A DNA stretch of 53,566 nt, taken from positions 1 to 53,566 of the forward strand of contig DATLTV010000013.1 in assembly GCA_035533375.1 (NCBI GenBank). The letters are read 5' to 3'. Origin of the DNA: Minisyncoccota bacterium. GTDB taxonomy: Bacteria; Patescibacteriota; Minisyncoccia; UBA6257; 2-01-FULL-56-20. Position 1 is the stretch's first letter, and each line of letters begins with the position of its first letter. Of the stretch, positions 1,290 through 53,566 are shown piece by piece. Below the pieces are notes generated by a model. The model was not told the origin of the DNA. It saw nothing but the letters and a program-made list of their open reading frames with translations, and made no database searches. Made by a program: the position numbers and the translations under genes.

Positions 1290-1404
1290 CTCCATAGCTC
1301 GTAAGCACCGAATCGCATTGCAATGGCGATTCGCCTGCTAAGCTCGTAAGCCACTCGAAAACGGATTGGCTTACGAGCTTACGAGCTTACGAGCTTACGA
1401 GCCT
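1287..1404. repeat. AGCTCGTW-octamer / hairpin composite element in the infC-rpmI spacer
   Basis: AGCTCGTA occurs at 1296-1303 and 1341-1348. There is a hairpin CGAATCGC/GCGATTCG (1309-1333) and a perfect 14-bp stem AAGCTCGTAAGCCA (1340-1353) / TGGCTTACGAGCTT (1367-1380). Four tandem TTACGAGC octamers (1371-1402) end 4 nt before the rpmI ATG. Confidence 0.8.
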
Positions 1405-35587: not shown

Positions 35588-35592
35588 AAAGC

Positions 35593-36324
35593 TTACGGGC
35601 TTACGGGCTTACGAGCTTCTTCCTCCACCGTTTCCACAAACCGCTGCTCAAGCGGCACTCCTTTGCAGAATTCCTTGACGCCGCCGGCATAAAGCAGTTT
35701 TCCGTCGTGGATCAGGCCGATCTCGTCGCAGATCTCCTCCGTGTCGTAGAGAATATGTGAATTGAAGAAAACGGTTTTGCCGGCGGTTTTGAGGCCAAGG
35801 ATTATTTTTTTTATTTCGCGGCGGCCCAAAGGATCGAGCCCGTCGAGCGGTTCGTCGAGGAAAATATAGTCGGGGTCGTTCACGAGCGCCTGTGCGAAGC
35901 CGAGCCGCTGTTTCATACCCTTCGAATACGTGTTGATGCTGCGGTTGCGCGCGTCATAGATGCCGATATCCTTGAGGATTTGTGCGTATGCTTCGTCGGA
36001 TTTGTGTCGCGGGAAGAGCGCGCCGCAGAAGCGGAGAAATTCGAGGCCCGTGAGTCGGTCGTAGAAATACGGCGCTTCCGGCATGAAACCGATCGTCTCG
36101 CGCATCGCTATGTCCGCGGAATCCTTGCCGCCGATCGTGATCGTACCGCTGTCCGGCGCCGCAATCCCCGTCATCATTTTGATCGTCGTCGTTTTTCCCG
36201 CGCCGTTCTGTCCGAGGAAGCCGAACACACTGCCTGTTTTGACGGCAAAAGAAAGATCATCGATAATGAGCCGCTTGCTGTAGAATTTTTTGAGATGGCT
36301 GATTTCGATCATATCTTTCGTCAA
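35593..36324 (-). CDS. ABC transporter ATP-binding protein
   Basis: Walker A GQNGAGKTT, signature YSKGMKQRLGFA, Walker B IFLDEPLDGLD. The last 7 codons are formed by three TTACGGGC/TTACGAGC octamers (35593-35616). Confidence 0.9.
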   Translation of the reverse strand: MTKDMIEISHLKKFYSKRLIIDDLSFAVKTGSVFGFLGQNGAGKTTTIKMMTGIAAPDSGTITIGGKDSADIAMRETIGFMPEAPYFYDRLTGLEFLRFCGALFPRHKSDEAYAQILKDIGIYDARNRSINTYSKGMKQRLGFAQALVNDPDYIFLDEPLDGLDPLGRREIKKIILGLKTAGKTVFFNSHILYDTEEICDEIGLIHDGKLLYAGGVKEFCKGVPLEQRFVETVEEEARKPVSP

Positions 36325-37190: not shown

Positions 37191-38885
37191 ATGAAGTCCA
37201 AGATTGAGGAGATTCTAAGGAAAGCGGTCGGCAGCGGGCCGGTCGATATTTTCGTTCCCGAAAAAGAGAACTTCGGGCATTATTCGACGAACATCGCGCT
37301 CCGGCTAGCGAAGCCTTCCGGTAAAACCCCGCTTGAGTTCGCGAAAGAGCTCGCGGAGAAAATCGCCGTATCGGCGCCCGCGGGACTTTTTGAAAAGGTG
37401 GAAGCGGCGCCGCCGGGCTTCGTGAATTTTTGGCTTGCGAAAGAGACCGTACAAAACGAATTCGCAAAAGCGGCGAAAGAAAAAACATTCGGCAGGAGCG
37501 CCGCTCACAAAAACAAGACCGTGATCGTCGAATATTCCCAGCCGAACATCGGCAAGATGATGCACGTGGGCCACCTGCGCACGACGATCATCGGCGACGC
37601 TCTCGCGAATATTTTCGAGTACCTCGGCTACAAAGTGATCCGCTGGAATTATTTGGGCGATTGGGGAACGCAGTTCGGCAAGCTCATCGCCGCTTATAAA
37701 ACATGGGGGGATAAACGAAAGGTCAAGGAACATCCGATCGACGAACTGCAGAAGCTATACGTGCGCTTCCACGACGAGGCGAAGCGCGATCCGATGCTTG
37801 AGATGCAGGGCCAGGCCGAGTTCAAGAAGCTCGAAGACGGCGATAAGGAAAACCGCAAGCTCTGGGAATGGTTCAAAAAGGAATCCCTGAAGGAGCTCGA
37901 CAAGATTTATGCGACGCTCGGCGTCGGTTTCGATACATACATCGGCGAAAGTTTTTTTGAAAAGAACATGAGGCCGCTTGTCGAGGAATTGCGGAACGAA
38001 GGCATCCTCACGAAAAGCGGCGGCGCGCTCATCGTGAATCTCGACGCCCTGAAACTGCCGCCTGCACTTGTCCTAAAAGCCGATGGCGCAAGCCTGTACC
38101 TCACGCGCGACATCGCCGCGCTCCGTTACCGCATCATAAAATTCAAGCCCGAGAAAATACTCTACGTCGTGGGCAATGAGCAATCGCTTCACTTCGAGCA
38201 GCTTTTCGCCATTGCGAAAATTCTTCGCATGGATAAAGCCGAGCTCAAACACGTGAAATACGGTCTGGTGCTCGGCGAAGCGGGCACGAAGCTTGCGACG
38301 CGCGAAGGCCGGACGATCCTCCTCAAAGACGTATTGCGCAAAGCGATCGAGCTTGCGCGGAAAGTGGTCGACGAGAAAAATCCGGCGCTTCAGGCGAAGG
38401 TGAAAGACAAGATCGCGGAAGCCGTCGGCGTCGGAGCCCTGAAGTACAACGACCTCAAAGAGAACCGCAACTCGGACATCACATTCAATTGGGAGCGCAT
38501 GCTCGACTTCACGGGCGATAGCGGGCCGTATTTGCAGTACACGTATGCGCGCTTGAAAAGCATTATCAGAAAATCTCAAACCTCAAACCTCAAATCTCAA
38601 AAATTCGAGATGCTCAATTCCGATATTGAACTCGCGCTCATGCGGAAGATATTCGAATTTCCCGACGAGGTCGCGCGCGCGGGCGAGGCGCTCATGACGA
38701 GCACGCTCGCGGCCTATCTTCACAAACTCGCCGTCCTCGCGAACAAATTCTACGAAACAACGCCGGTGTTGAAAGAAGAAAATCCCGTCCGCCGCGCCGC
38801 GCTCTTATCGCTCATCTCCGTGGCTGCGGAAACGCTCAAAAACGGCCTCGCGCTTTTGGGAATCGAAACGACGGAGGAGATTTGA
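37191..38885 (+). CDS. argS: arginyl-tRNA synthetase
   Basis: 564 aa. The HIGH-type motif is SQPNIGKMMHVGHLR and the C-terminal anticodon-binding (DALR) region is present. Confidence 0.95.
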   Translation: MKSKIEEILRKAVGSGPVDIFVPEKENFGHYSTNIALRLAKPSGKTPLEFAKELAEKIAVSAPAGLFEKVEAAPPGFVNFWLAKETVQNEFAKAAKEKTFGRSAAHKNKTVIVEYSQPNIGKMMHVGHLRTTIIGDALANIFEYLGYKVIRWNYLGDWGTQFGKLIAAYKTWGDKRKVKEHPIDELQKLYVRFHDEAKRDPMLEMQGQAEFKKLEDGDKENRKLWEWFKKESLKELDKIYATLGVGFDTYIGESFFEKNMRPLVEELRNEGILTKSGGALIVNLDALKLPPALVLKADGASLYLTRDIAALRYRIIKFKPEKILYVVGNEQSLHFEQLFAIAKILRMDKAELKHVKYGLVLGEAGTKLATREGRTILLKDVLRKAIELARKVVDEKNPALQAKVKDKIAEAVGVGALKYNDLKENRNSDITFNWERMLDFTGDSGPYLQYTYARLKSIIRKSQTSNLKSQKFEMLNSDIELALMRKIFEFPDEVARAGEALMTSTLAAYLHKLAVLANKFYETTPVLKEENPVRRAALLSLISVAAETLKNGLALLGIETTEEI

Positions 38886-39540: not shown

Positions 39541-42500
39541 ATGCCAGCCAATGATGAAGCGAAGACCGATACCGGATTCAATCTCCCCGCGAAAGAAGAG
39601 GAGGTTTTGAAGTTCTGGGAGGAAAAGCATATTTTCGAGAAAAGTCTCGAGAAGAACAAGCCGGAAAAAGCCGGAGCCGGAAAAAAAAATACCTTCGTGT
39701 TTTACGAAGGCCCGCCGTATGCGAATGGGAAACCGGGGATCCACCACGTGCTCGCGCGCATCGTGAAGGACGTAATCCTGCGCTACAAAACGATGCGCGG
39801 ATTTTACGTGCCGCGGAAAGCCGGCTGGGATACGCACGGGCTCCCGGTCGAGATGGCTGCGGAAAAAGCGCTCGGCTTCAAATCGAAAAAGGACATCGAA
39901 CAATACGGCGTGAAGCGGTTCAACGAGAAAGCGAAAGAGCAGGTGTGGCTTTATAAAGACGAGTGGGAGAGCATGACGCGCCGCATCGGCTACTGGCTCG
40001 ATCTCAAGAACGCCTACGTGACGTACGAGCCGGAATATATCGAGACGCTTTGGTGGACGCTCCAAAAAATCTGGCAGAACAAGCTGTTGTACAAAGGGCA
40101 CAAGGTCGTGCCGTGGTGCACGCGGTGCGGCACGGCGCTTTCCTCGCACGAGCTCGCGCAGGGATATAAAGAGACGACCGACAATTCGGTGTATGTGAAA
40201 TTCAAGTTAAAATCTGGACAAAAAATCGGCGATCATACCATAAAGAGCAAAGATAAAATATACATATTATCGTGGACAACGACCCCTTGGACGCTTCCCG
40301 GAAACGTGGCGCTCGCAGTCGGCCCGAATATACAGTATCGCGCCGTAGAACAAAGCGGAGAATATTTGATTGCCGCAGTCGATCGGCTTAAGGATCTTGG
40401 GCTTGATAGCGCGCATGTTTCGCGCGAAATCACGGGCTCGCAACTCGTTGGCTTGGAATACGAACCGCTTTTTAATATTCCCGCATTGCAAAAAGAAAAA
40501 TCATACAAGATCTACCCTGCGGATTTTGTGACAACAACAGATGGTACGGGCGTCGTGCATACGGCCGTGATGTACGGCGAGGACGACTATCGGCTCGGTA
40601 AAAAGATTGGTCTGCCGGAGCATCATACCGTGGACGAAGAAGGGAAATTCACGAAGGACGTGTCGGGCCTCGCCGGTTCCTATGTAAAATCCAAAGAAAC
40701 GGAAGAAAAAATATTCGCGCATCTCGAAAAGGACGGGAATTTGCTCCGCAAAGGAGCGTATACGCACGAATATCCTTACTGCTGGCGCTGCGGAACACCG
40801 ATTCTTTACTACGCGCGCACGTCATGGTTCATCGCGATGTCCTCATTGCGCGAGAAGCTTCTGGCCGCAAACAAAAAAATAAATTGGATGCCGGAACACG
40901 TGAAGGAAGGCCGCTTCGGCGAGTGGCTCCGCGAAGTGAAGGACTGGAATCTTTCGCGCGAACGTTATTGGGGCGCGCCATTGCCGATCTGGGAGTGCAA
41001 AAAGTGCGGCGAGCTCGAAGTGATCGGCGGCCTCGATGATCTGAGCGCGAAAGCGGGAGGATCGAAAAATAGTTATTGGACGATGCGGCACGGGTTCGCG
41101 GAGAATTTGATCGAGAAGATCCTCGATTCGGGGCAGAAGGAGTTGCATCTTACGGAGCTTGGCCGCGACCAGGTGCGGCGGTCGGCGGAAGCATTGAAAA
41201 AAGAGCTTGCAAGCCATAAAAAGAAAATCGATTTCATCGTCGCGTCGGACGTGTTGCGTACCAAAGAGAGTGCGGAGATCGCGGCGGCGGTCCTTGGGGT
41301 TCCCGTCGAATTCGACAAACGACTCCGCGAGATCCATCTCGGCGTGTTCGCCGGCCGGCACGAAGGAGGGTGGCACAAACTGTTCCCGACGCTTGAATCG
41401 CGCTTTGAAGGCGCTCCGGAAGGAGGGGAAACGTTGCGCGACCTGCGGGCGCGCATGTGGCAGGCCGTGACGGAACTGGAAAAAAAGTATAACGGCAAAA
41501 ATATTTTGATCATGAGCCACGAGTATCCGATCTGGATGCTCACGCACGCGGCGGAGGCATGGAGCGAGAAGCGCGCGATCAGGGAGAAACAAGACCGCGG
41601 AGACGATTTTGTCGTGCCTGCGGCGTTCGGCGAGCTCCGCGTGAAGATCGTGCCGCGGAACGACACGGGCGAAGTGGATCTGCATCGGCCGTTCGCCGAC
41701 GATATCCCGCTGCCCTGCAAAAAATGTGGAGGAGAGATGCGCCGGATAAAAGAGGTGGCGGACGTCTGGTACGATTCCGGTGCGATGCCGTTCGCGCAAG
41801 ATCACTACCCGTTCGCTTGCGTGAAAAATCAGAAATCAGAAATCCGGAATCCGAAACCACCCGAAGCGTATCCCGCCGATTATATCGCCGAAGGCATGGA
41901 CCAGACGCGCGGCTGGTTTTACACCCTGCTTGCGGTCGCAACCGCGCTCGGATACGAAGCGCCTTACAAGAACGTGATCTCGCTCGGACTTATCAACGAC
42001 AAATTCGGCCAGAAAATGTCCAAATCAAAAGGCAATGTCGTCGATCCCTGGGCCGTGATACGGAAATACGGCGCCGATGCCGTGCGCTGGTATTTTTATA
42101 CGGCGAACCCGCTCGGCGAGCCGAAGAATTTCGACGAGCTCGAGATTTTGAAATCCTACCGGAGGATGCACCTGATCCTTTGGAATTCGGTTGCATTTTG
42201 GAAAACCTATGCCTCGGGCGGTGTTGGTTCCGAACCTCCGCAATCGAAAAATGTTCTCGATCAATGGATTCTTGCGAGATTGGATGAGGTAGCCGAAGAA
42301 GCATCCGCGCGGCTCGAGCAATACGAGATCCGGGAAGCGGCGCTCGCGATAGAATCGTTCGTAGACGATCTTTCGCGCTGGTATATCCGCCGGTCACGGA
42401 AGCGCTTACAGCATTCGACGGATGAGGTTGATTTCAAATCGGCGTCGGCGACGCTCGGCTTCGTGCTTCGCGAAACGACAAAACTTATTGCGCCATTTAC

Positions 42501-43101
42501 GCCGTTCTTCGCCGAATCATTATACGAAAACTTCAAAGAGCGGGAATCGGTGCATCTCGATTCCTGGCCGAAAGCGAAGGGAAAGATCGATGCCAAATTG
42601 ATCGAGGGAATGGCGGAGGCGCGTCGGCTTGCGAGCCTCGGCCTTGCGAAGCGGGCCGAGTTGAAATTAAAGGTGCGGCAACCACTCGCGAATATGAAAA
42701 TCAAGTCTCAGGTCTCAAGTCTCAAATCTCAACATGATCTGCTTACCATTCTTGCGGACGAAGTGAATGTGAAGGAAGTGGCATTTGATGAAAAGATTGC
42801 GGGTGAAGTTGAACTCGATACCACGATTACGCCGGAGTTGAAAGAAGAAGGACTGCTCCGCGAGGTCGCGCGCGCGGTGCAGGGATTGCGCCAGGAAGCG
42901 GGCCTTGCGCCGAAGGACAAAGTTGCGGTGATGCTGGAACTTCCCGTTGCGGCGAAGAACGCGGTGCAGAAAAACGAAGGCGCGTTCAAATCCGATGTCG
43001 GCGCGGCGTCGGTTTCATACGGTAAATCAGAAAAGTTCGATGCGGAGGCATCGACGAAAGTGGATGGCGCGGAAGCGTGGATAGGAATACGAAAGGTTTA
43101 A
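39541..43101 (+). CDS. ileS: isoleucyl-tRNA synthetase carrying an internal histidine-phosphatase-like domain
   Basis: 1186 aa. It has PPYANGKPGIHHV (HIGH), the editing domain, KMSKSKGN, and CxxC knuckles at residues 486-489 and 726-729. A roughly 205-aa RHG...SH phosphatase-like insert lies between the knuckles. Confidence 0.95.
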   Translation: MPANDEAKTDTGFNLPAKEEEVLKFWEEKHIFEKSLEKNKPEKAGAGKKNTFVFYEGPPYANGKPGIHHVLARIVKDVILRYKTMRGFYVPRKAGWDTHGLPVEMAAEKALGFKSKKDIEQYGVKRFNEKAKEQVWLYKDEWESMTRRIGYWLDLKNAYVTYEPEYIETLWWTLQKIWQNKLLYKGHKVVPWCTRCGTALSSHELAQGYKETTDNSVYVKFKLKSGQKIGDHTIKSKDKIYILSWTTTPWTLPGNVALAVGPNIQYRAVEQSGEYLIAAVDRLKDLGLDSAHVSREITGSQLVGLEYEPLFNIPALQKEKSYKIYPADFVTTTDGTGVVHTAVMYGEDDYRLGKKIGLPEHHTVDEEGKFTKDVSGLAGSYVKSKETEEKIFAHLEKDGNLLRKGAYTHEYPYCWRCGTPILYYARTSWFIAMSSLREKLLAANKKINWMPEHVKEGRFGEWLREVKDWNLSRERYWGAPLPIWECKKCGELEVIGGLDDLSAKAGGSKNSYWTMRHGFAENLIEKILDSGQKELHLTELGRDQVRRSAEALKKELASHKKKIDFIVASDVLRTKESAEIAAAVLGVPVEFDKRLREIHLGVFAGRHEGGWHKLFPTLESRFEGAPEGGETLRDLRARMWQAVTELEKKYNGKNILIMSHEYPIWMLTHAAEAWSEKRAIREKQDRGDDFVVPAAFGELRVKIVPRNDTGEVDLHRPFADDIPLPCKKCGGEMRRIKEVADVWYDSGAMPFAQDHYPFACVKNQKSEIRNPKPPEAYPADYIAEGMDQTRGWFYTLLAVATALGYEAPYKNVISLGLINDKFGQKMSKSKGNVVDPWAVIRKYGADAVRWYFYTANPLGEPKNFDELEILKSYRRMHLILWNSVAFWKTYASGGVGSEPPQSKNVLDQWILARLDEVAEEASARLEQYEIREAALAIESFVDDLSRWYIRRSRKRLQHSTDEVDFKSASATLGFVLRETTKLIAPFTPFFAESLYENFKERESVHLDSWPKAKGKIDAKLIEGMAEARRLASLGLAKRAELKLKVRQPLANMKIKSQVSSLKSQHDLLTILADEVNVKEVAFDEKIAGEVELDTTITPELKEEGLLREVARAVQGLRQEAGLAPKDKVAVMLELPVAAKNAVQKNEGAFKSDVGAASVSYGKSEKFDAEASTKVDGAEAWIGIRKV

Positions 43102-46963: not shown

Positions 46964-48949
46964 CTATATCTCGATAATTACGGGTAAAATCATAGGCCGC
47001 CGGCGAGTTTTGTTGTAGAGAAACTGCCCCACTTGGTCGCGGATGAGCGTTTTCACATAGTCGGGCTCGATTGGCTGGTAGCTCGGGAGGCGGTTCATAA
47101 GATCGCGGATTTTTTTTCTGACTTCGTCGAGCATGCCGCCGTTGTCTTTGAGGTAGATGAATCCGCGCGAGATGATGTCGGGGCTTTTGAGTACTTTGCC
47201 TTTGTCGCGGTCGACGGTGAGAATAATCACGATCATTCCTTCCTGCGCAAGCGCCCTGCGGTCGCGGACGACGACTTCCTCGACATCGCCCACGCCGAGT
47301 CCGTCCACCATTACGTAAAACGCCGGCACGCTTTCTTTAGTCACCCTGAAGGTGTCCTTCGTAAGCTCCGCGACTTGGCCGTTGTCCATAAGGAAGATGT
47401 GGTCCTTCGGAATACCGACTTCCTGCGCCGAGCGGGCGTTCGCCGCGCGCATGAAATAGTAGCCGTGCACGGGCACGAGGAATTTCGGATTAATGAGCTT
47501 CATCACGAGCTTCAAGTCTTCCTTCGGCGCGTGGCCCGAGGAGTGGATGTCGATCAGGGCCGAGTGGTGGACGAGCGCGCCCTGCCGCGCAAGGTTGTCC
47601 TTCACGACCTGCACGCTTTTTTCGTTGCCGGGGATGACGGACGAGGAGAGGACGACCGTGTCGCCCGGCTTGATTTTCACATGTCGGTGCTCGCCGTTGA
47701 TCATTTTCATGAGCCCGGCGTTCGATTCGCCCTGCGCGCCGGTGGAAAGAATCATGAGTTTATCGTCCTTGTATTTGCCGATTTCTTCGACGGCGATGAG
47801 CGTGCCTTCCTTCGCTGTGACGAAACCGAGATTTTGCGCGATCTGGACGTTCGTTTTCATCGAGTAGCCGTTCAGCGCCACTTTGCGGCCGAGCTTTTCC
47901 GCGATCTTGATGATCTCCGCGATGCGGGTGAGGAGCGAGGCGAAGGTCGCGACGATGATGCGGCCTTCGGCTTTCAGGAAGATCTCTTCGAGATTTTTCT
48001 CGACGGTTTTTTCGGAGATCGTATGCCCCGCTTTTTCGGCGTTCGTGCTATCGATCGTGAACGTGTGCACGCCTTCCTTGCCGATGCGCTCGAATTCCTC
48101 GAGGCCGTATGCATTCCCTTTTTCGTCGTAGTCGATGCGGAAATCGGCGAAGTGCACCATGTTGCCGATCGGAGTTTTGAGGACGACGCCCGTCGTCTCG
48201 GGCACCGTGTGCGGCACGCCGAAGAATTCGGCGTCGAAATGGTTCGAGAGCTTCACTTTATCGCCGTTTCGCACGATCTGGATGTTCATTTTCGGGGCAT
48301 TCGGGAAGTCGGTCTGGCGCTTCTCGACGATCGCTTTCGTAAGCGAGGTCGCGTAGATCGGGGGGTTACCTATCTTGCCCATGACGTGCGGCAGAGCGCC
48401 GATGTGGTCGTAGTGAGCGTGCGTAAGCACGACCGCGACGATATTTTGTTTTTTCTTTTCGAGGTAGGCGACGTTCGGGATGATATAATCGATGCCCGGC
48501 GTTTCCTCTTCGGGGAATTGCAGGCCGAGGTCGATGATCACGATCTCGTTTTTATATTCGTAAAACATCGAGTTCCGCCCCACTTCTTCGAGGCCGCCGA
48601 GCGGTACGAAGCGGAGCGCATCGGGATTGCCCTCGTGTTCCGCGGGAACATGTACCGTCGGACGTGCGCCCGTCGCGGGCGAGCGGAAAGATGCTGGCGG
48701 AGTGCCGTGGCGGCGCGCTCCGCCACGGTCGCCACGCGGCGGCCTGTTTTCGCCGAAGCTTCGGCGGGCGGGCGGGCGTCCGGCGCCGCGCTGGCCGTGA
48801 TCCGGCCGCTGTTCCGGAGTTCGCATCGGTCGTCCCTCGGGATGGCCGTCTGTGGCGGGCCGAGGTTGACGCGGCGGAATCGCCGGCGGCTTGATGTGCG
48901 GCCGTTCTGCGGGCCGCTCGTTCGGTTGGCTATCTTGTTTTTTTATCAT
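46964..48949 (-). CDS. rnj: ribonuclease J (metallo-beta-lactamase / beta-CASP) with about 100-aa Pro/Arg-rich N-terminal extension
   Basis: LTHAHYDHIG (HxHxDH), the beta-CASP region, and the HSSGH motif. N-terminal residues 1-105 are low-complexity P/R/G. Confidence 0.9.
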   Translation of the reverse strand: MIKKQDSQPNERPAERPHIKPPAIPPRQPRPATDGHPEGRPMRTPEQRPDHGQRGAGRPPARRSFGENRPPRGDRGGARRHGTPPASFRSPATGARPTVHVPAEHEGNPDALRFVPLGGLEEVGRNSMFYEYKNEIVIIDLGLQFPEEETPGIDYIIPNVAYLEKKKQNIVAVVLTHAHYDHIGALPHVMGKIGNPPIYATSLTKAIVEKRQTDFPNAPKMNIQIVRNGDKVKLSNHFDAEFFGVPHTVPETTGVVLKTPIGNMVHFADFRIDYDEKGNAYGLEEFERIGKEGVHTFTIDSTNAEKAGHTISEKTVEKNLEEIFLKAEGRIIVATFASLLTRIAEIIKIAEKLGRKVALNGYSMKTNVQIAQNLGFVTAKEGTLIAVEEIGKYKDDKLMILSTGAQGESNAGLMKMINGEHRHVKIKPGDTVVLSSSVIPGNEKSVQVVKDNLARQGALVHHSALIDIHSSGHAPKEDLKLVMKLINPKFLVPVHGYYFMRAANARSAQEVGIPKDHIFLMDNGQVAELTKDTFRVTKESVPAFYVMVDGLGVGDVEEVVVRDRRALAQEGMIVIILTVDRDKGKVLKSPDIISRGFIYLKDNGGMLDEVRKKIRDLMNRLPSYQPIEPDYVKTLIRDQVGQFLYNKTRRRPMILPVIIEI

Positions 48950-49141
48950 AAATTGATTTCGTGAGTTCTAATTATTTTTTAATATATCGTTGTATAACTC
49001 GTGCGTTGCCGCGCGGCCGTGGGATCTTCTGTTTTATTTTTGAATTTACCCTCCATTGTCCTGCTGTTTCGGTTTTGTCTGCGGCAAGATATAAGAAAAT
49101 CTAAAACTCGCCACACTCGTTAAGTTTTCCTTTTTGTATTG

Positions 49142-49225
49142 TGGGCAGAGAGGGATTCGAACCCTCATGAGATTGCTCCCGCTGGCTCCTGAAGCCAGTG
49201 CGTCTGCCAGTTCCGCCATCTGCCC
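49142..49225 (-). tRNA. tRNA-Leu (anticodon CAG), class II with long variable arm
   Basis: My own fold of the minus-strand sequence is as follows. Acceptor GGGCAGA/TCTGCCC. Anticodon stem CTGGC/GCCAG with loop TTCAGGA. T arm GAGGG-TTCGAAT-CCCTC. Discriminator A. No CCA is encoded. Confidence 0.9.
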
Positions 49226-49269: not shown

Positions 49270-49392
49270 AGGCCTATGCCCGCAGAACGTTCGGCAGATA
49301 TCGTTTCATCGGATCGTTAACAAAGGAGGAGTTAATCGAGGTTATGTTCATTGTAGCAAGGACTGGTTTAAAAGTCAAATGTTAGTCTCTTC

Positions 49393-49480: not shown

Positions 49481-49544
49481 GGCTAACGAGCTAAACGCTC
49501 GAAATCCATTTCTTGATTTCGAGCGCTATCGAGCCAACGAGCTA
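49481..49544. repeat. NAACGAGC-octamer / hairpin module
   Basis: TAACGAGC, then an 11-bp hairpin CGCTCGAAATC-8 nt-GATTTCGAGCG (49496-49525), then TATCGAGC and CAACGAGC. The module abuts the stop of the 49542 gene and is about 60 nt homologous to 51287-51340. Confidence 0.8.
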
Positions 49545-51200
49545 TTTCAGTACCCTCGCCGTATTCAGGTACCAGCCCGCGGTGCCGCCGAAGATGTCGG
49601 ATGGATCGGCAATCGTGCCGCCCTGCGCGCCGTGGAGATTTTTGTCGGCTATATAGAGATAGTCCGGCGAATAGAGGAAGATGGCGGGCGCGCTATTCAC
49701 GATCGTGTCCTGAAGCTTGATGAAATTCGCCGCGCGTTTTGCCGGATCGAGCTCCTGCCGGATGGAATTAATGAGCGAATCCGCCGTCGCACTGTTATAG
49801 ATCGCGAGATTGAGGCCCGGGTAGAAGCGCTGCGACGAGTTCCAGAAGGAATAGAGGTCGTCGCTCGGGCCGAGAATGTTGCCGAAGAGCAGCATTTCGT
49901 AGCTGCGATTTTTCACGGCGTTCGCGGCGAGCGCGTCCGCGGGCTCGACGTCCTGATCAATCTTGAATCCCGCGCTTTGCCAGGCGCTCTGCAGCAAGTT
50001 CGCGGTCGTTTCCAGGAAATCGATTTGCGGCACGGTGAGCGTGAGTTCGAGCGGCACTTCCTGTCCGCCGATCTTTTTTTCGCGGAAGCTTGACGAGGTC
50101 ATCACCCAGCCGGCGGCGTCGAGCGTGGCGCTCGCTTCACTCAGCGCATCCGCACCGCCGAGCGTGCTCGTGGGAACGAGATTGTGATCGAAATTCGGCG
50201 AGTTCTCGGGAATGGGGCCGATTGCGGGTGAGCCATGGCCGCCGAGCGCGGCATTCACGAGCGCATTGCGGTCGGTAAGGAGATTAAGCGCATTCCGCAC
50301 CGCGGCGTCTTGGAGCGGCAAGCTTTGGCTCTGGTTTAAAAATACCCCATAGTAACTCGGCAATTTAAAGGGGATGAGTTCGTAGGGACGTTTCACGCTT
50401 GCAAGGTTCGCGGAGTCCAGGCTCGCAAGGCCGTCGATCGCGCCCGAGTTGAAATGCGATATGAGGTCGTCCGTCTGCGCGAAAAAGCGGAAATCGAAGT
50501 TCTGGATAAGGGCGGCGGTCCCCGGAAAACTTTTCCATGCGGCAAGTTTGTAATCCGTGATGAATCCGTCCGGGCGCTTGTCGTAGTTCACGAATTGATA
50601 CGGGCCCGAACCAACGGGTTTCAAATTATAATCGGACAGCTTCCAATTCGCGGGCGGGGTGTCGACGAAAAGATGTTTCGGAATCGGATAAAGGGCATTC
50701 ACCGTATCGCCGAAAAAGGCGTACGGGTTAATCAGGCTGAATTGGAGTTCGAGCTCGGAGACGCGCGACGCCGAAACGCCCTGCCAGGAGGCCGCGAGCG
50801 GGGACTGGGTGGCCGGGTCCTGGATTTCCTGCACGGTGAAGATCACGTCGTCCGAGGTGAGCTGTTGCCCGTCCTGCCACTTGAGATTCTCCTTGAGCCG
50901 CACGTCCCAGGTCCTGCCGTCCTGCGACATCGTGATGCTTTGCGCGAGTTCGCCAAGATTCGCGAAAACGAGTTTGAAGAGGCTTTTATCGGTCTGGCTC
51001 GAGGCGATCACGGGGTTTACGTAGATCGGCTGGCCCACCGCGCCTTCGGCATAATCGCCGCCCGCCGCCGGCACGTCGCGCGTTGCGGCCGTAAGTCCCG
51101 CGCCCACGAGCGAGGCGCCGCTCACGATCGCCGCGCCCAGGGCGATGAAGAAAACGATCCGTTCGCGTCGAGTAAAAGAGAGGAAGATCTTTTTGAACAT
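49542..51200 (-). CDS. ABC transporter substrate-binding protein, family 5 (peptide/nickel type), N-terminally anchored
   Basis: 552 aa. It has the typical SBP_bac_5 pattern (DGRTWDVRLKENLKWQDGQQLTSDDVIFT...). No permease or ATPase genes are adjacent. Confidence 0.8.
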   Translation of the reverse strand: MFKKIFLSFTRRERIVFFIALGAAIVSGASLVGAGLTAATRDVPAAGGDYAEGAVGQPIYVNPVIASSQTDKSLFKLVFANLGELAQSITMSQDGRTWDVRLKENLKWQDGQQLTSDDVIFTVQEIQDPATQSPLAASWQGVSASRVSELELQFSLINPYAFFGDTVNALYPIPKHLFVDTPPANWKLSDYNLKPVGSGPYQFVNYDKRPDGFITDYKLAAWKSFPGTAALIQNFDFRFFAQTDDLISHFNSGAIDGLASLDSANLASVKRPYELIPFKLPSYYGVFLNQSQSLPLQDAAVRNALNLLTDRNALVNAALGGHGSPAIGPIPENSPNFDHNLVPTSTLGGADALSEASATLDAAGWVMTSSSFREKKIGGQEVPLELTLTVPQIDFLETTANLLQSAWQSAGFKIDQDVEPADALAANAVKNRSYEMLLFGNILGPSDDLYSFWNSSQRFYPGLNLAIYNSATADSLINSIRQELDPAKRAANFIKLQDTIVNSAPAIFLYSPDYLYIADKNLHGAQGGTIADPSDIFGGTAGWYLNTARVLK

Positions 51201-51348
51201 AGCCTTTTAGCTCGTTAGCTCGTTAGCGCTCGAAATCGTTCCAACAGATTTCTCGCGTTTAGCTCATTAATCGTTCAATAGTTTCTACTAACGAGCTAAA
51301 CGGCGAAATCGTTTCGTGGTTGATTTCGCCGCTATCGAGCTAACAAGC
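51201..51348. repeat. intergenic spacer built of AGCTCGTT / TAACGAGC octamers and GAAATC...GATTTC hairpins
   Basis: AGCTCGTT x2 (51209-51224), the hairpin GGCGAAATC-11 nt-GATTTCGCC, then TATCGAGC and TAACAAGC. Confidence 0.8.
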
Positions 51349-51567
51349 TTATTTCCCGTACACCAATTGATACACCGCAAGTCCCACAAACGCGACAGCG
51401 AGGACGATCGTTGAAATAAAAATAAATTTTTCGAGGCCGCGCCGCGTCTGGTAATAACCGCCGCCTTCGCCGCCGAAAATGCCCGAAAGTCCCGCAGAGC
51501 GTTCCTGGAGGAGGATTAAAATGACAAGAAGGACGGCGATGATGATTTGGATGATAGCTAGGAACAT
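51349..51567 (-). CDS. secG: preprotein translocase subunit SecG
   Basis: 72 aa with two TM helices and the Gly-rich loop LLQERSAGLSGIFGGEGGG. Confidence 0.85.
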   Translation of the reverse strand: MFLAIIQIIIAVLLVILILLQERSAGLSGIFGGEGGGYYQTRRGLEKFIFISTIVLAVAFVGLAVYQLVYGK

Positions 51568-51686
51568 GTTAGCTCGTAAGCTCGTAAGCTCGTTAGCTCG
51601 TTAGTAATACATTTACTAAAGAGCCAGACGCGGGAAATCCGTTGTATGATTTCCTGCGCTAACGAGCTATCGGGCTTTATTATTTT
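51568..51686. repeat. octamer array (AGCTCGTA x2, AGCTCGTT x2) plus hairpin plus inverted TAACGAGC
   Basis: Four tandem octamers at 51571-51602, the hairpin GCGGGAAATC-8 nt-GATTTCCTGC, then GCTAACGAGCTATCGGGC. Confidence 0.8.
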
Positions 51687-52034
51687 CTATGGAATCAAAT
51701 GAATTAAGAAGTTCGCGACGCCTATGATGATCGTTCCCCAGATGAGCGCCGGAATGCTTCCAATCGTAAGCTGTGCGGAGAATTTGTCAAGAATAGCGAG
51801 GATCAGGGCGTTTACGAGAATGAGCCCGATGCCGAGCGTGAGGATGATGATGGGGCCGAGGAGGAGTTTGAGGATCGGTCCGAGGATGAAATTCATCACG
51901 GCGAGCGCGAGCGCGAGGAGAAAGAGCGCCTGCCACCCGCCCGCAAGGCCGAACAGGGGAATATAGGTTGACGCGAACCAAAGTCCGAGCGCGTTCGCGA
52001 GTACGTGGCCGATGAGTTTTGCGAGGAGCTTCAT
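51687..52034 (-). CDS. phage-holin-family-4 / DUF360-like membrane protein
   Basis: 115 aa with four hydrophobic helices. GPILKLLLGPIIILTLGIGLILVNALIL is typical of the family. Confidence 0.7.
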   Translation of the reverse strand: MKLLAKLIGHVLANALGLWFASTYIPLFGLAGGWQALFLLALALAVMNFILGPILKLLLGPIIILTLGIGLILVNALILAILDKFSAQLTIGSIPALIWGTIIIGVANFLIHLIP

Positions 52035-52158
52035 GGTTTTATTCTAGCTCGTTAGCGCGTCCCAGCAAGTCGATGGCTGGGACGCACCTGGCTCTTTGGC
52101 TTTTTAGCCAAAGAGCATTGTATCTACTAAAGAGCCAACGAGCCAACGAGCTAACGAG
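52035..52158. repeat. octamer / double-hairpin spacer
   Basis: AGCTCGTT (52046-52053), hairpins GCGTCCCAGC/GCTGGGACGC and GCTCTTTGGCT-TTTT-AGCCAAAGAGC, then CAACGAGC x2 plus TAACGAGC (52136-52159). Confidence 0.8.
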
Positions 52159-53566
52159 CTATACCAGCGACTCGAGCAGGCTCCGCCCCGTCATCTCGGG
52201 CGGTTTTTTGATGCCGATGATCTGCAAAATAGTGGGCGCGACATCCGCGAGCGATCCGAGCGTTTCGAGCCCGGGATCGTTCCAGTTCGTGAATTTTCTT
52301 CCGCGGAATTCGGGGCCGACGAGATAGAACGGCACGGGGCTTGCGTCGTGCTGGCTTTCGGGGAGGCCGGTCGCCGGATTCAGCATTTCTTCGACGTTTC
52401 CGTGGTCCGAGGTGATCACGAGAAGCGTCTCGGGATTGATCGCCACCTTGAGAAGCCGCCCGATCTCCTCGTCGATCACGCGCACGGCCTGCATGCCCGC
52501 ATCGTAATCCGCGGTGTGCGCGATCGCGTCGCCGTTCGCGTAATTCACGAGGATGAAGTCGAACGCGTTCGTCTGCACCGCTTCGATGAGCCGGTCCGTG
52601 ATCGCTTTCGCCATCATCTCGGGGTGTTCTTCGGGGTGCGGCGTCTGGAGCGACGGGATGAGCGCGCGGAATTCGTTTTTGAACGGCGGCTCGCGGAGGC
52701 CGTTGAAGAAATAGGTGACGTGCGCGTATTTGTAAGTTTCGGCGAGGCGCAATTGGTTTTTCCCCGCATCGGAGAGCACTTCGCCGAGCGGCTTTTCCGC
52801 TTTGTCCATCGCGAAGGCGACCGGCACGTCGAAATCGTCGCGGTAGTGGGTCATCGTCGCAATGTGGAGATCCTTGAATTGCTGCACCGGGAATTTATCG
52901 AAGCCGGGAATAATAAACGACTCGGCGAGCTGGCGGATCGAATCTTCGCGGTAGTTGAAGAAGATGATCGCGTCGCCGTCCTTCACGCACGTGTCTTCGC
53001 CGAAGCGCATCGCCGGCAGGTATTCCTCGGTGAGGCCTTTTTTGAAGATCGCTTCGATGACCGGCGCGGGATCCGCGACGAGCTCCCCGGCCGTATTCGT
53101 CGTGAGGTTATCGTATGCCGTTTGCGTGAGCCGCCAGGCGCCGTTCCGATCCATGGCGTAATAGCGGCCGATGAGCGTCGCTATTTTATCCTTCGGCAGT
53201 TCCGCAAGGAATTTTTGCACGGTGTGCGGCGGGCTGTCCTTGCCGTCGGCGAAAAGATGCAGCCGCACGTTCGCCACTTTTTCCATCTCGGCCATTTTGA
53301 GCAGGGCCTGGATGTGCTCGAGTGAAGCGTGGACGTTGCCTTTCGAAAGCAGTCCCATGAGATTCACTGCGGAATTATTTTGCCGCGCATGCGCGAAAGC
53401 GTCCTTGAGTGCTTTGTTCGCGAAGAACGTTTCGTCCCGGATCGCCATCGTGATCTTCGGATAGTACTGGTAGAGCACTTTGCCGGCGCCGAGCGTGAGG
53501 TGGCCGACTTCGCTGTTGCCGACCTCTCCCCACGGAAGCCCGACCGAAATCCCCGAGGCCTGGAGC
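52159..53566 (-). CDS. gpmI: 2,3-bisphosphoglycerate-independent phosphoglycerate mutase, N-terminus beyond window end
   Basis: The frame stays open to the window edge: LQASGISVGLPWGEVGNSEVGHLTLGAGKVLYQYY... (GNSEVGH motif). The C-terminal TSDHGN motif is present. Confidence 0.9.
   Translation of the reverse strand, partial: LQASGISVGLPWGEVGNSEVGHLTLGAGKVLYQYYPKITMAIRDETFFANKALKDAFAHARQNNSAVNLMGLLSKGNVHASLEHIQALLKMAEMEKVANVRLHLFADGKDSPPHTVQKFLAELPKDKIATLIGRYYAMDRNGAWRLTQTAYDNLTTNTAGELVADPAPVIEAIFKKGLTEEYLPAMRFGEDTCVKDGDAIIFFNYREDSIRQLAESFIIPGFDKFPVQQFKDLHIATMTHYRDDFDVPVAFAMDKAEKPLGEVLSDAGKNQLRLAETYKYAHVTYFFNGLREPPFKNEFRALIPSLQTPHPEEHPEMMAKAITDRLIEAVQTNAFDFILVNYANGDAIAHTADYDAGMQAVRVIDEEIGRLLKVAINPETLLVITSDHGNVEEMLNPATGLPESQHDASPVPFYLVGPEFRGRKFTNWNDPGLETLGSLADVAPTILQIIGIKKPPEMTGRSLLESLV

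Follow-up and report, generated by a model that had tools for sequence, protein, structure and literature searches.

Inverted octamer arrays at gene junctions of a Minisyncoccota bacterium as probable gene-less miniatures of PF05635 cassettes

The AGCTCGTW and WACGAGCY arrays of a Minisyncoccota genome (GenBank assembly GCA_035533375.1) probably represent (probability of about 0.6) the two arms of genus-specific foldback elements of ~70–150 nt, which are gene-less miniatures of PF05635 cassettes enclosed by inverted tandem-unit arms of the same type. The elements belong to a widespread class of hairpins made of inverted short tandem repeats (heptamer arrays, STRR-type repeats), the mechanism of which is unexplained, and are a variant of this known class, not a new system; what sets the AGCTCGTW family apart is its unit of 8 nt and an additional, conserved hairpin branch. 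The original prediction, made from the window (the whole 53,566-nt stretch of contig DATLTV010000013.1 analyzed here), recognized no described family. This stands for the exact octamer family, of which we found no description, but not for the class, which is known from Xanthomonas arrays, TAACTGA and STRR repeats and PF05635 intervening sequences. Its coordinates were all confirmed, and the elements are listed in Table 1.

Table 1. Repeat elements mapped in the window. SBP, substrate-binding protein.
Feature	Position (strand)	Units or stems	Context	Basis
TA-subfamily hairpin module	1296..1350 (+)	AGCTCGTA - GCACCGAATCGC...GCGATTCGCCTGC - AGCTCGTA	past infC stop (1287-1289)	
Reverse array x4	1372..1403 (+)	TACGAGCT x3 + TACGAGCC	ends 3 nt before rpmI ATG (1407)	
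Three forward-type units	35594..35617 (-)	minus strand AGCTCGTA AGCCCGTA AGCCCGTA	encode last residues and stop of ABC ATPase	
Hairpin module	49483..49535 (-)		past SBP stop (TAG 49542-49544, within first unit); without reverse array	
Reverse array x2	51209..51224 (-)	minus strand AACGAGCT AACGAGCT	8 nt before ATG (51200) of SBP gene	
Second hairpin module, secG-SBP spacer	51217..51270 (+)		inverted; one of only 4/37 non-sense-oriented copies	
Hairpin module	51288..51341 (-)		sense, immediately past secG stop (51349-51351)	nhmmer and covariance model
Reverse array x4	51571..51602 (-)	minus strand AACGAGCT AACGAGCT TACGAGCT TACGAGCT	ends 3 nt before secG ATG (51567)	
Hairpin module	51616..51668 (-)	forward unit - GAAATC hairpin - forward unit	downstream of holin-like stop	nhmmer E=1.4e-13; covariance model E=1.7e-14; fold agrees
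Reverse unit	52046..52053 (-)	minus strand AACGAGCT	3' half of closing stem, 11 nt upstream of holin-like ATG (52034)	
Second internal hairpin	52057..52085 (-)	GCGTCCCAGC...GCTGGGACGC	gpmI / holin-like spacer	sequence and fold
Internal perfect hairpin	52090..52116 (-)	GCTCTTTGGCT...AGCCAAAGAGC	gpmI / holin-like spacer	
Forward array	52129..52161 (-)	minus strand T-AGCTCGTT-AGCTCGTT-GGCTCGTT-GGCTCTTT	after gpmI; 5' half of closing stem in fold	
gpmI stop	52159-52161	TAG	belongs to first unit of forward array	

The window contains 21 exact AGCTCGTW matches, compared with 3.08 ± 1.9 in shuffled sequences, and none of 100 shuffles reached 21. Tandem Repeats Finder (TRF) delineated period-8 arrays at 1369-1402, 35591-35618, 51207-51227, 51568-51604 and 52127-52161, and the original view that this is not a CRISPR array is supported. 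The repeat is not local, since the 853-kb genome contains 266 exact matches, 65% of which fall in its 17% intergenic share, and 70 arrays of at least two units spread over more than 35 contigs. Arrays are 16–64 nt long and at least five further unit families (7, 8 and 11 nt) share the same design, with unit sequences ranging from AATTTTC to GCCGGGGCTTA. As the genome is a metagenome assembly fragmented into 94 contigs, collapsed or chimeric repeats might be suspected; such an artefact has a negligible probability because the arrays are shorter than typical reads and lie mid-contig, copies within coding sequences keep the frame via stop-free variants, and relatives that were assembled independently contain orthologous and analogous elements. 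Genes were called with a purpose-made simple caller and some start codons are therefore uncertain.

Along the mRNA, an element comprises the stop codon (often within the first unit), 1–3 forward units, the conserved covarying hairpin, a forward unit, a short second hairpin, 2–8 reverse units and 0–10 nt before the ATG, an architecture found in ~50 spacers. The spacers of the window were proposed to share one design, from which 49481-49544 departs: it is not a forward...reverse pair but a lone module of forward unit, hairpin and forward unit. Its predicted homology with 51287-51340 was borne out, as nhmmer and the covariance model identify both as copies of one 53-nt module. The module at 49483..49535 is followed by a tRNA gene that has a promoter-like site of its own. 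The orientation of the elements is strictly tied to transcription: hairpin modules lie downstream of a same-strand stop in sense orientation in 33 of 37 copies, reverse units are in excess over forward ones, and paired arrays are always convergent. Modules are also found behind the final gene of a run that meets a convergent neighbour.

The hairpin is a 12-bp imperfect palindrome with some G·U pairs. Its covariation amounts to 91.7% paired cells, against 85% in shuffles and 20–48% in slid controls, and two stem positions show seven double changes each. Predicted folds of the four window spacers bridging two genes have z-scores of -6.4 to -9.4, and for the module behind the SBP stop z is -3.4. 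Genome-wide, z is below -3 for 101 of 245 co-directional spacers of 45–200 nt; in these, the paired region extends, by median, from 1 nt past the stop to 6 nt short of the ATG, and only 28 of them contain near-continuous duplexes of at least 20 bp, as opposed to 0/75 weakly folding spacers. Folding energies were no different between the sense and antisense strands of the spacers (50:50, p=0.89), so the arms give no hint of selection at the RNA over the DNA level; only the polarity and some hairpin G·U pairs point to RNA.

The hairpin module is genus-specific, with 31, 20 and 8 copies detected by the covariance model in three congeners and none in 38 other genomes. This restriction and the position of the palindrome after stop codons would suit REP/REPIN-type elements mobilized by a RAYT-like Y1 tyrosine transposase that recognizes the conserved GAAATC hairpin. 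Indeed, two of the three members of the genus have a Y1 gene, and the best NCBIfam match of the Y1_Tnp gene in this genome (G000 C3:400-1080) is the REP-associated tyrosine transposase model. We nonetheless consider such mobilization very improbable: the match scores below the curated cut-off (68 vs 80 bits), the gene is bordered by a 21-bp inverted repeat of its own that has no relation to either octamer or hairpin, a search of G002 (eight modules; genome 75% complete) yielded no Y1 gene, and the hairpin-less families and the arrays in Y1-less genomes would be left unexplained. Bacterial MITEs such as Correia elements are comparable short intergenic hairpin-forming repeats. With REP/REPIN sequences and their RAYT transposases (PMC3116915), the AGCTCGTW elements share short hairpin-forming repeats located between genes after stop codons, many copies per genome, lineage-specific families and, presumably, co-transcription, and as dispersed hairpin-forming repeats they are REP-like in the broad sense originally predicted. 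Unlike REP/REPINs and MITEs, however, they have arms made of tandem arrays with variable unit number and no transposase-bearing parent with the same arms, the only gene-bearing relatives carrying PF05635; a search for a cognate RAYT associated with the elements found none.

PF05635/TIGR02436, the "23S rRNA intervening-sequence protein", is a small four-helix-bundle gene. We know of no enzymatic activity for PF05635, and hence "miniature of a cassette" names no mobilizing enzyme. All three PF05635 genes of this genome lie between arrays, and a truncated copy (C27:2712-2873) is directly enclosed by four forward and five reverse units. Inverted arrays were present on both sides at 13/13 PF05635 loci inspected in 11 genomes (the C27 copy and 12 loci in relatives). 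Where comparable (G001 and this genome, G000), the flanking arrays match the abundant gene-less family, and array density rises with PF05635 copy number across six genomes.

The 23S rRNA of Leptospira contains intervening sequences (IVSs) bearing S23p/PF05635. The IVS of Coxiella resembles the cassettes described here in that inverted arms form a long stem enclosing a PF05635 four-helix-bundle gene, within a transcribed region and in sense orientation (PMC4990558). The IVS ORF also tends to decay, which the truncated copy parallels. Our elements differ in lying between or inside protein-coding genes and not in rRNA, and most no longer contain any of the ORF. Excision by RNase III has been shown for the Coxiella IVS (PMC4990558), whereas for the present elements we infer transcription, folding in vivo and RNase III cleavage. 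An element would be co-transcribed with its operon and fold into a Y shape, the forward array pairing with the reverse array to form a closing stem from the stop codon to ~6 nt before the next ATG. RNase III, the gene for which is present in the genome, would be expected to cut the many stems with at least 20 bp of near-continuous duplex as in the homologous rRNA IVSs; such cuts would split the cistrons apart and keep the insertion from doing harm at the RNA level. The upstream mRNA would retain the conserved hairpin, which would protect its 3' end, and from surplus unpaired reverse units the downstream gene would gain a short leader free of structure. Shine–Dalgarno (SD) sites are rarely used in this genome.

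Alternatively, the elements could be a selected translational device, in which the reverse array is an SD-independent leader or a binding site (S1, Csp or CsrA type) masked by the forward array until a terminating ribosome at the stem-base stop melts the stem, thereby coupling translation over a 100-nt spacer. The ATG lying shortly past the closing stem and the stop codon located at its base fit such a device, as do reverse arrays ending 0–10 nt upstream of ATGs, with an SD motif in 0/30 of these genes, and an excess of reverse over forward units (25 spacers, vs 5 with the opposite excess; p=3e-4). The TAACTGA repeats, for which S1, Csp or CsrA type binding was proposed, provide a precedent (PMC4679880). 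Moreover, in both congeners elements fill more than 15 of the 22 junctions in the ribosomal-protein operon, and whether an orthologous junction is occupied correlates between species (odds ratio 3.8, p=0.007), a pattern equally compatible with neutral tolerance, insertion hot spots and a selected function. We regard this device as unlikely since (i) SD use is only ~12% genome-wide, so that missing SD motifs downstream of reverse arrays are not special, (ii) the breadth of unit sequences argues against a single sequence-specific binder, (iii) orthologous junctions in congeners are empty or hold elements of other families, (iv) the gene preceding a module can also be the final one before a convergent neighbour, and (v) a dedicated translational signal does not predict the same arrays inside coding sequences and around PF05635 genes.

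Heterocystous cyanobacteria contain comparable short tandem repeats, the STRR heptamers. In Xanthomonas, convergent arrays of the heptamer GGGAATC (Rehm et al. 2015, PMC4692102) mostly have at least four tandem copies, are dispersed and ~90% intergenic, lie close behind ORFs (nearer the upstream one, 28 nt on average) and form 70–75 stem-loop-capable convergent pairs per genome; tandem short units, dispersal and convergent stem-loop pairs are common to both systems. In contrast to the Xanthomonas and STRR repeats, the unit is 8 nt here (7 and 11 nt in sister families of the same genome), no quadruplex is expected as it is not G-rich, a conserved hairpin with covariation forms a side branch, the whole spacer between stop and start is taken up by the element, several families coexist in a genome, and essential enzymes contain in-frame copies. 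The TAACTGA heptamer direct repeats of Beggiatoaceae, Cyanobacteria and Bacteroidetes (MacGregor 2015, PMC4679880) likewise occur as 2–6 tandem copies pointing to a start codon and ending ~1 nt upstream, contain stops in all three frames (as does TAACGAGC here), precede genes mostly lacking an SD site, and in some cases overlap ORF ends or lie inside ORFs, ribosomal-protein operons included. Unlike the present arrays, they are nearly all direct, with a single inverted case reported, have neither a partner array at the upstream stop nor a conserved hairpin, and show one dominant unit across phyla instead of genome-specific families.

Gene junctions turn over fast between species. The holin-secG junction spans 119 nt here and 0–3 nt in both congeners, and ribosomal-protein-operon junctions filled in one congener measure 1–9 nt in the other. 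Whole ~100-nt elements recur at separate loci, the non-repeat interiors (hairpin, second loop and leader to the ATG) being near-identical between distant sites. The elements have thus been copied as units to many gene junctions and do not grow locally; no target-site duplication was definable. Local replication, in which polymerase slippage builds the arrays of 7-8-nt units on the spot and their inverted copy arises by template switching, with neither mobility nor function, could account for the many unit families side by side and for the differing variants of congeners (AGCTCGTW vs AGCTCGAT). Slippage has been proposed for over-represented heptamer-range repeats in some prokaryotes (Mrazek 2007, as summarised in PMC4679880). 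Such a by-product is quite doubtful given the near-identical interiors, a copy number that peaks at ~4 without broad spread or geometric decay, paired arrays that are exclusively forward...reverse (18:0), and the AGCTCGAT / TAACGAGC arms around a 67%-identical PF05635 gene in G028, a member of another family. Copy number and whole-element recurrence also speak against the "expanding micro-repeat" originally envisaged.

Arrays occasionally also lie inside conserved coding sequences: RluD, IscS, TrmD and a UvrD-type helicase contain in-frame array insertions that appear as gaps in orthologue alignments, consist of stop-free unit variants only and map to surface loops or protein ends. Rickettsia palindromic elements (RPEs; Ogata et al. 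2000, cited in PMC1779305 and PMC10969869) are reportedly small palindromic repeats, both intergenic and in frame in conserved genes, where they add short peptides in tolerant loops. The AGCTCGTW elements share this dual location but no sequence relationship, and RPE arms are not tandem short units; we know of no link between RPEs and the PF05635 cassette. The proposal that arrays abut stop and start codons and remodel gene termini also held, with changed ends in the ABC ATPase, the C52 tail (...KKLVSS and stop), the MurD N-terminus and prepilin N-termini. In the ABC ATPase, the units encode ...EEARKPVSP and the stop, as predicted, and the tails of both congeners diverge past a conserved ...FVETVE.

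The AGCTCGTW repeats are present in the window as originally described, with 21 octamers against an expected 3.08 ± 1.9, a number attained in none of 100 dinucleotide-preserving shuffles. The assembly holding the window as contig C13 (G000; 853 kb, 94 contigs, 54.5% GC) contains 266 exact octamers, 174 of which (65%) fall within the 17% of the sequence classed as intergenic by gene models from a self-trained caller made for this analysis, whereas no composition-matched control octamer has more than 11 copies there. The genome-wide census proposed with the original prediction identified 70 arrays of at least two units, most commonly of four (19 arrays), spread over more than 35 contigs and therefore not confined to one region. 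The exclusion of a CRISPR array is also borne out: CRISPR arrays are built from direct repeats of ~24–48 nt and unique spacers of similar length, whereas the units studied here are 8 nt long, contiguous, devoid of spacers and arranged in inverted pairs. At the gathering threshold, Rfam has no match in the window except one tRNA.

We oriented the octamer-bearing spacers by the direction of their flanking genes before comparing layouts. The recurrent layout starts at a TAG or TAA stop codon, often within the first forward unit (T-AGCTCGTW; TAGCT or TAAGCT is found at the stop of 37 genes), and continues with 1–3 forward units, AGC and an 11–12-bp hairpin, GT(T/C)T-AGCTC(G/T)TWAG, a second, short hairpin with a stem that extends into the units, 2–8 reverse units (WACGAGCY), 0–10 AT-rich nucleotides and ATG. 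Two subfamilies are distinguished: the first pairs AGCTCGTT units with the hairpin GCGCnCGAAATC...GATTTCGnGCG and the second pairs AGCTCGTA units with GCrCCGAATCGC...GCGATTCGyCTGC. A profile search of the genome recovered 37 copies of the module formed by a forward unit, the hairpin and a forward unit (E below 1e-4). Within it, 91.7% of alignment cells are paired compared with 85.1% in shuffles (attained in 0 of 500), pairing falls to 20–48% once the hairpin partners are slid as a control, and two stem positions carry seven double substitutions each. The conserved hairpin is maintained by compensatory change.

The elements are strictly polar relative to transcription. Of the 37 modules, 33 are sense-oriented and follow a stop codon of the same strand, mostly at a distance of 6–10 nt, with both sides of convergent gene pairs included. 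Neighbouring arrays are convergent (forward then reverse) in 18 cases and divergent in none, and where spacers are co-directional, the reverse array near the start has more units than the forward array near the stop in 25 cases versus 5 (p=3e-4). We argue from this polarity that consequences at the RNA level shape which insertions survive. Stop codons occur in each of the three frames of the forward arrays of both types and of the TAACGAGC reverse arrays, whereas the TA-type TTACGAGC arrays are open in every frame, which misleads start-codon calling and caused our caller to over-extend some N-termini.

An intrinsic (Rho-independent) terminator has a GC-rich hairpin with a U-tract behind it on the sense strand, whereas in the modules GUUUAG or GUCUAG comes after the hairpin. 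We rejected this reading: a terminator scan detected no sense-strand terminator at the modules, the total count (7) is not above chance (4.7 ± 2.4 in shuffles), and a same-strand gene comes next after 26 of 34 modules. Promoters in the spacers are likewise not above chance. A Shine-Dalgarno-like motif lies within 20 nt of ~12% of called starts, a lower bound because starts in G000 were set by the longest-ORF rule; such low genome-wide use makes the absence of this motif after arrays uninformative. The idea of an altered anti-Shine-Dalgarno sequence was dropped because of this low use and because the assembly lacks a 16S rRNA gene.

The four bridging spacers of the window, each between two genes, are predicted to fold far more stably than expected (z = −6.4 to −9.4), and the module after the stop of the substrate-binding protein (SBP) gene, which lacks a reverse array, scores z = −3.4. 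Within the predicted folds of the bridging spacers, the forward and reverse arrays form a closing duplex that extends from at or beside the stop codon to 6–13 nt before the AUG, with the conserved hairpin as a side branch. Genome-wide, 101 of 245 co-directional spacers of 45–200 nt have z below −3; in these, the median distance is 1 nt from the stop codon to the start of pairing and 6 nt from the end of pairing to the ATG, and a near-continuous helix of at least 20 bp occurs in 28 of them compared with none of 75 weakly folding spacers. Folding energies of whole spacers do not differ between sense and antisense strands (50:50), so that the arms alone do not tell selection on RNA structure from selection on DNA structure. 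The hairpin module forms 41 G·U pairs when folded in sense and 19 in antisense, with energies that do not differ (p=0.33).

Searching for the exact dimer yielded 78 matches in G000 (overlaps counted), 4 and 3 in its two congeners G001 and G002, and one in 38 other genomes. The congener counts are too low since the dominant unit there is AGCTCGAT, and a covariance model of the hairpin module corrected them, finding 31, 20 and 8 copies in G000, G001 and G002, respectively, and none in the 38 other family and order genomes. The two congeners build the same architecture from AGCTCGAT and ATAGAGCT units. The gpmI–holin-like–secG–SBP synteny is kept. The holin–secG junction measures 119 nt in G000 and is reduced to tagatg in G001 and taaccaatg in G002; other junctions of the locus hold different families, such as (GCTTCTCA)x7 in G002. 

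We scored 89 orthologous co-directional spacers between G000 and a relative, counting those of 45 nt or more as occupied: 46 are occupied in both species, 15 in neither, 18 in G000 only and 10 in the relative only (odds ratio 3.8, p=0.007). More than 15 of the 22 junctions of the ribosomal-protein operon (contig C75 in G000) hold elements in G000 and G001 alike, but of different families. Element copies in this operon are near-identical within one genome as far as the ATG, and where only one genome carries an element the empty counterpart junction spans 1–9 nt. Array density is patchy across the order and ranges between 0 and 21 per 100 kb.

The octamer is one unit among several. Tandem Repeats Finder detected 54 heptamer, 46 octamer and 9 undecamer arrays in the genome, nearly all of 4.1–4.6 copies, and at least five further unit families (TAGCTKT, AATTTTC, CTCAAAT, AAATCCG and GCCGGGGCTTA) lead from the stop through a forward array, a loop and a reverse array to the ATG. 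The GCGCGAAATC hairpin is common to the 11-mer family too. Arrays also lie in frame inside several conserved genes, where they are built from the stop-free variants AACGAGCC and GGCTCGTT. Their sites coincide with gaps in orthologue alignments of 11, 10 and 20 residues in RluD, 5, 4 and 9 residues in IscS and 5 residues in TrmD. In the helicase, aligned from the actual G000 translation, the arrays coincide with two variable loops; inverted arrays particular to G001 and built from other units occupy these loops in that genome, and the relative G003 has (AATTTCC)x4 there. Beyond ...FVETVE, the ABC ATPase has a different C-terminal tail in each of the three congeners. The heptamer arrays within argS and ileS look like in-gene copies of the same array class made from other units. 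Taken together, we describe a dispersed, polar and structured element family that behaves as insertions, turns over between species, invades coding loops and has arms in common with cassettes encoding a PF05635 protein.

Locations of repeat arrays, PF05635 genes and neighbouring features (C, contigs of G000)
Feature	Location	Description
Intact PF05635 copy	C27:1785-2099	octamer arms and hairpin modules
Truncated PF05635 copy	C27:2712-2873	enclosed directly by a forward x4 and a reverse x5 array
Intact PF05635 copy	C21:18090-18392	between TAGCTKT arrays
Period-8 arrays (Tandem Repeats Finder)	window 1369-1402, 35591-35618, 51207-51227, 51568-51604, 52127-52161	
In-frame heptamer arrays, argS and ileS	window 38571-38601, 41826-41856, 42701-42732	~4.4 copies; AAACCTC, AAATCAG, TCAAGTC
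In-frame array, KsgA		...LTYELTYELTYEL...
In-frame arrays, UvrD-type helicase		two whole elements
In-frame arrays, RluD, IscS, TrmD, MurD		
In-frame arrays, three pilin-like genes		N-terminal regions
Spacer in relative G016 (L005)	G016:C7 2915-3195	bounded by CCCGTTAGAG... and ...CTCTAACGGG directly before ATG
Spacer in relative G005 (L004)	G005:C1 3432-3555	same boundaries
RAYT-like Y1 tyrosine transposase	C3:388-1156	Y1 gene at C3:400-1080
Partial third copy of the Y1 inverted repeat	C40:27120	
Spacer with octamer element	C70:2136-2349	~250 nt beyond the RNase III gene
RNase III gene	C70:2602-2988	
tRNA	window 49142-49225 (-)	
Extended -10 promoter-like site	window 49350-49378 (-)	TTGACT-17-TG-TACAAT
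643-aa open frame	window 47033-48964 (+)	antisense to RNase J-like gene
RNase J-like gene (661 aa)	window 46964-48949 (-)	

All three PF05635 matches in G000 are flanked on both sides by arrays. A homologue was absent from ~0.9 Mb of relatives' DNA, and a whole-genome search of the relatives was then made. In all 13 loci inspected in 11 genomes (12 in relatives plus the C27 copy of G000), a forward array lies upstream of the gene and its reverse complement downstream. The arms of the G001 cassette (GAATAAT/ATTATTC) are those filling the ribosomal operon of that genome. In G028, which belongs to another family, the PF05635 gene is 67% identical and is preceded by AGCTCGAT units and followed by TAACGAGC x4; this cassette is the sole exact-dimer match outside the genus. 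Among the six genomes having both figures, array density climbs with PF05635 copy number. The elements of the window contain no ORF and are accordingly classed as gene-less derivatives rather than as cassettes. Two spacers with a common pair of boundary sequences were seen in the family members G016 and G005. Judged by eye, the G016 spacer encloses a small ORF of GIY-YIG-like type; if so, such foldback loops would seem able to house other small genes as well.

The likeness to a REP-type element put forward in the original prediction holds for the hairpin, a short imperfect and covarying palindrome present in 37 copies in intergenic regions, but a RAYT gene with cognate REP flanks is lacking: the flanks of the Y1 gene are unrelated to the hairpin or the octamer, and its NCBIfam score is below the cut-off. 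This RAYT-like protein of 226 residues has an HWH motif and YQGRY, and a perfect 21-bp inverted repeat, GGGAAAACAGTGTCAGGTACC, lies on both sides of it and is essentially private to the gene. A MITE has terminal inverted repeats and a target-site duplication; inverted arms are present here, with ends that are often TA(G)...(C)TA, and the empty congener junctions define no clear duplication. No transposase gene was detected between such arms, the sole gene-bearing relatives carrying PF05635. The PF05635 protein is a TIGR02436 four-helix bundle whose nearest solved structure is Xanthomonas XCC0516 (2GSC), an entry holding five chains. It is faintly Avd-like (24.8 bits against the Avd model, cut-off 80). 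A link to diversity-generating retroelements (DGRs) was rejected, as G000 has no RVT_1 match and four PF05635-positive genomes are without a reverse transcriptase. Among relatives G001–G029, all eight genomes with an RVT_1 reverse transcriptase (~340 aa, probably of the DGR type) also have PF05635.

We also considered a speculative and, in our judgement, rather unlikely scheme. The PF05635 protein would act in trans as a partner that recognises ~4–5 tandem units (2GSC has five chains, and arrays cluster at 4.1–4.6 units) and drives the copying of cassettes and gene-less miniatures into the nucleotides separating stop and start codons, after which RNase III would clear the element from transcripts. 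If this scheme is true, the elements would represent a phylum-spanning, hitherto unrecognised mobile-element class, the cyanobacterial and Xanthomonas heptamer repeats would be explained and the '23S rRNA IVS protein' would gain a function.

At the RNA level, the element is probably co-transcribed with its neighbours and folded. Its long stems would then be cut by RNase III, the gene for which is present in G000, by analogy with the Coxiella IVS (PMC4990558). The upstream message would keep the hairpin at its 3′ end, and the reverse units in surplus would serve the downstream message as a leader. Such cutting would make insertions tolerable and would explain their polarity. A selected role in translational coupling is a live alternative to this tolerance of insertions. 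An octamer element also occupies a spacer near the RNase III gene itself.

The original proposal that the repeats are not a described family stands, as far as we could find, for the octamer variant with its hairpin branch, whereas the class has precedents in heptamer arrays that converge behind ORFs (PMC4692102), tandem heptamer repeats next to start codons (PMC4679880) and stem-loops bearing PF05635 (PMC4990558). Like heptamer/STRR-type arrays, the octamer units are tandem, dispersed and mainly intergenic, and form convergent stem-forming pairs close behind the upstream ORF; their period is 8 instead of ~7, which argues against explanations tied to 7 nt. Beyond this period, what is new is that a conserved hairpin branches off with strict sense polarity, that the elements fit the space from stop to start codon, that they saturate the ribosomal-protein operon and that they form a clear series from full through truncated to gene-less.

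These elements fill essential operons, take one another's place at orthologous junctions of congeners, lengthen RluD, IscS, TrmD and a UvrD-type helicase by peptide segments, remodel protein termini and inflate the spacers of reduced CPR genomes. To our knowledge, short tandem heptamer-type repeats of bacteria, known since ~1990, have never been explained, and we know of no function or transposase activity for PF05635, yet its structures have been solved. One small genome joins the two, with the same arms occurring around the gene, around a truncated gene and with no gene.

Two further observations were made in the window. The 643-aa open frame antisense to the RNase J-like gene is Arg-rich and rejected by the codon model, and we interpret it as a shadow ORF rather than a gene. 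Between the post-SBP element and the tRNA lies a good extended −10 promoter-like site, and the tRNA probably has its own promoter.
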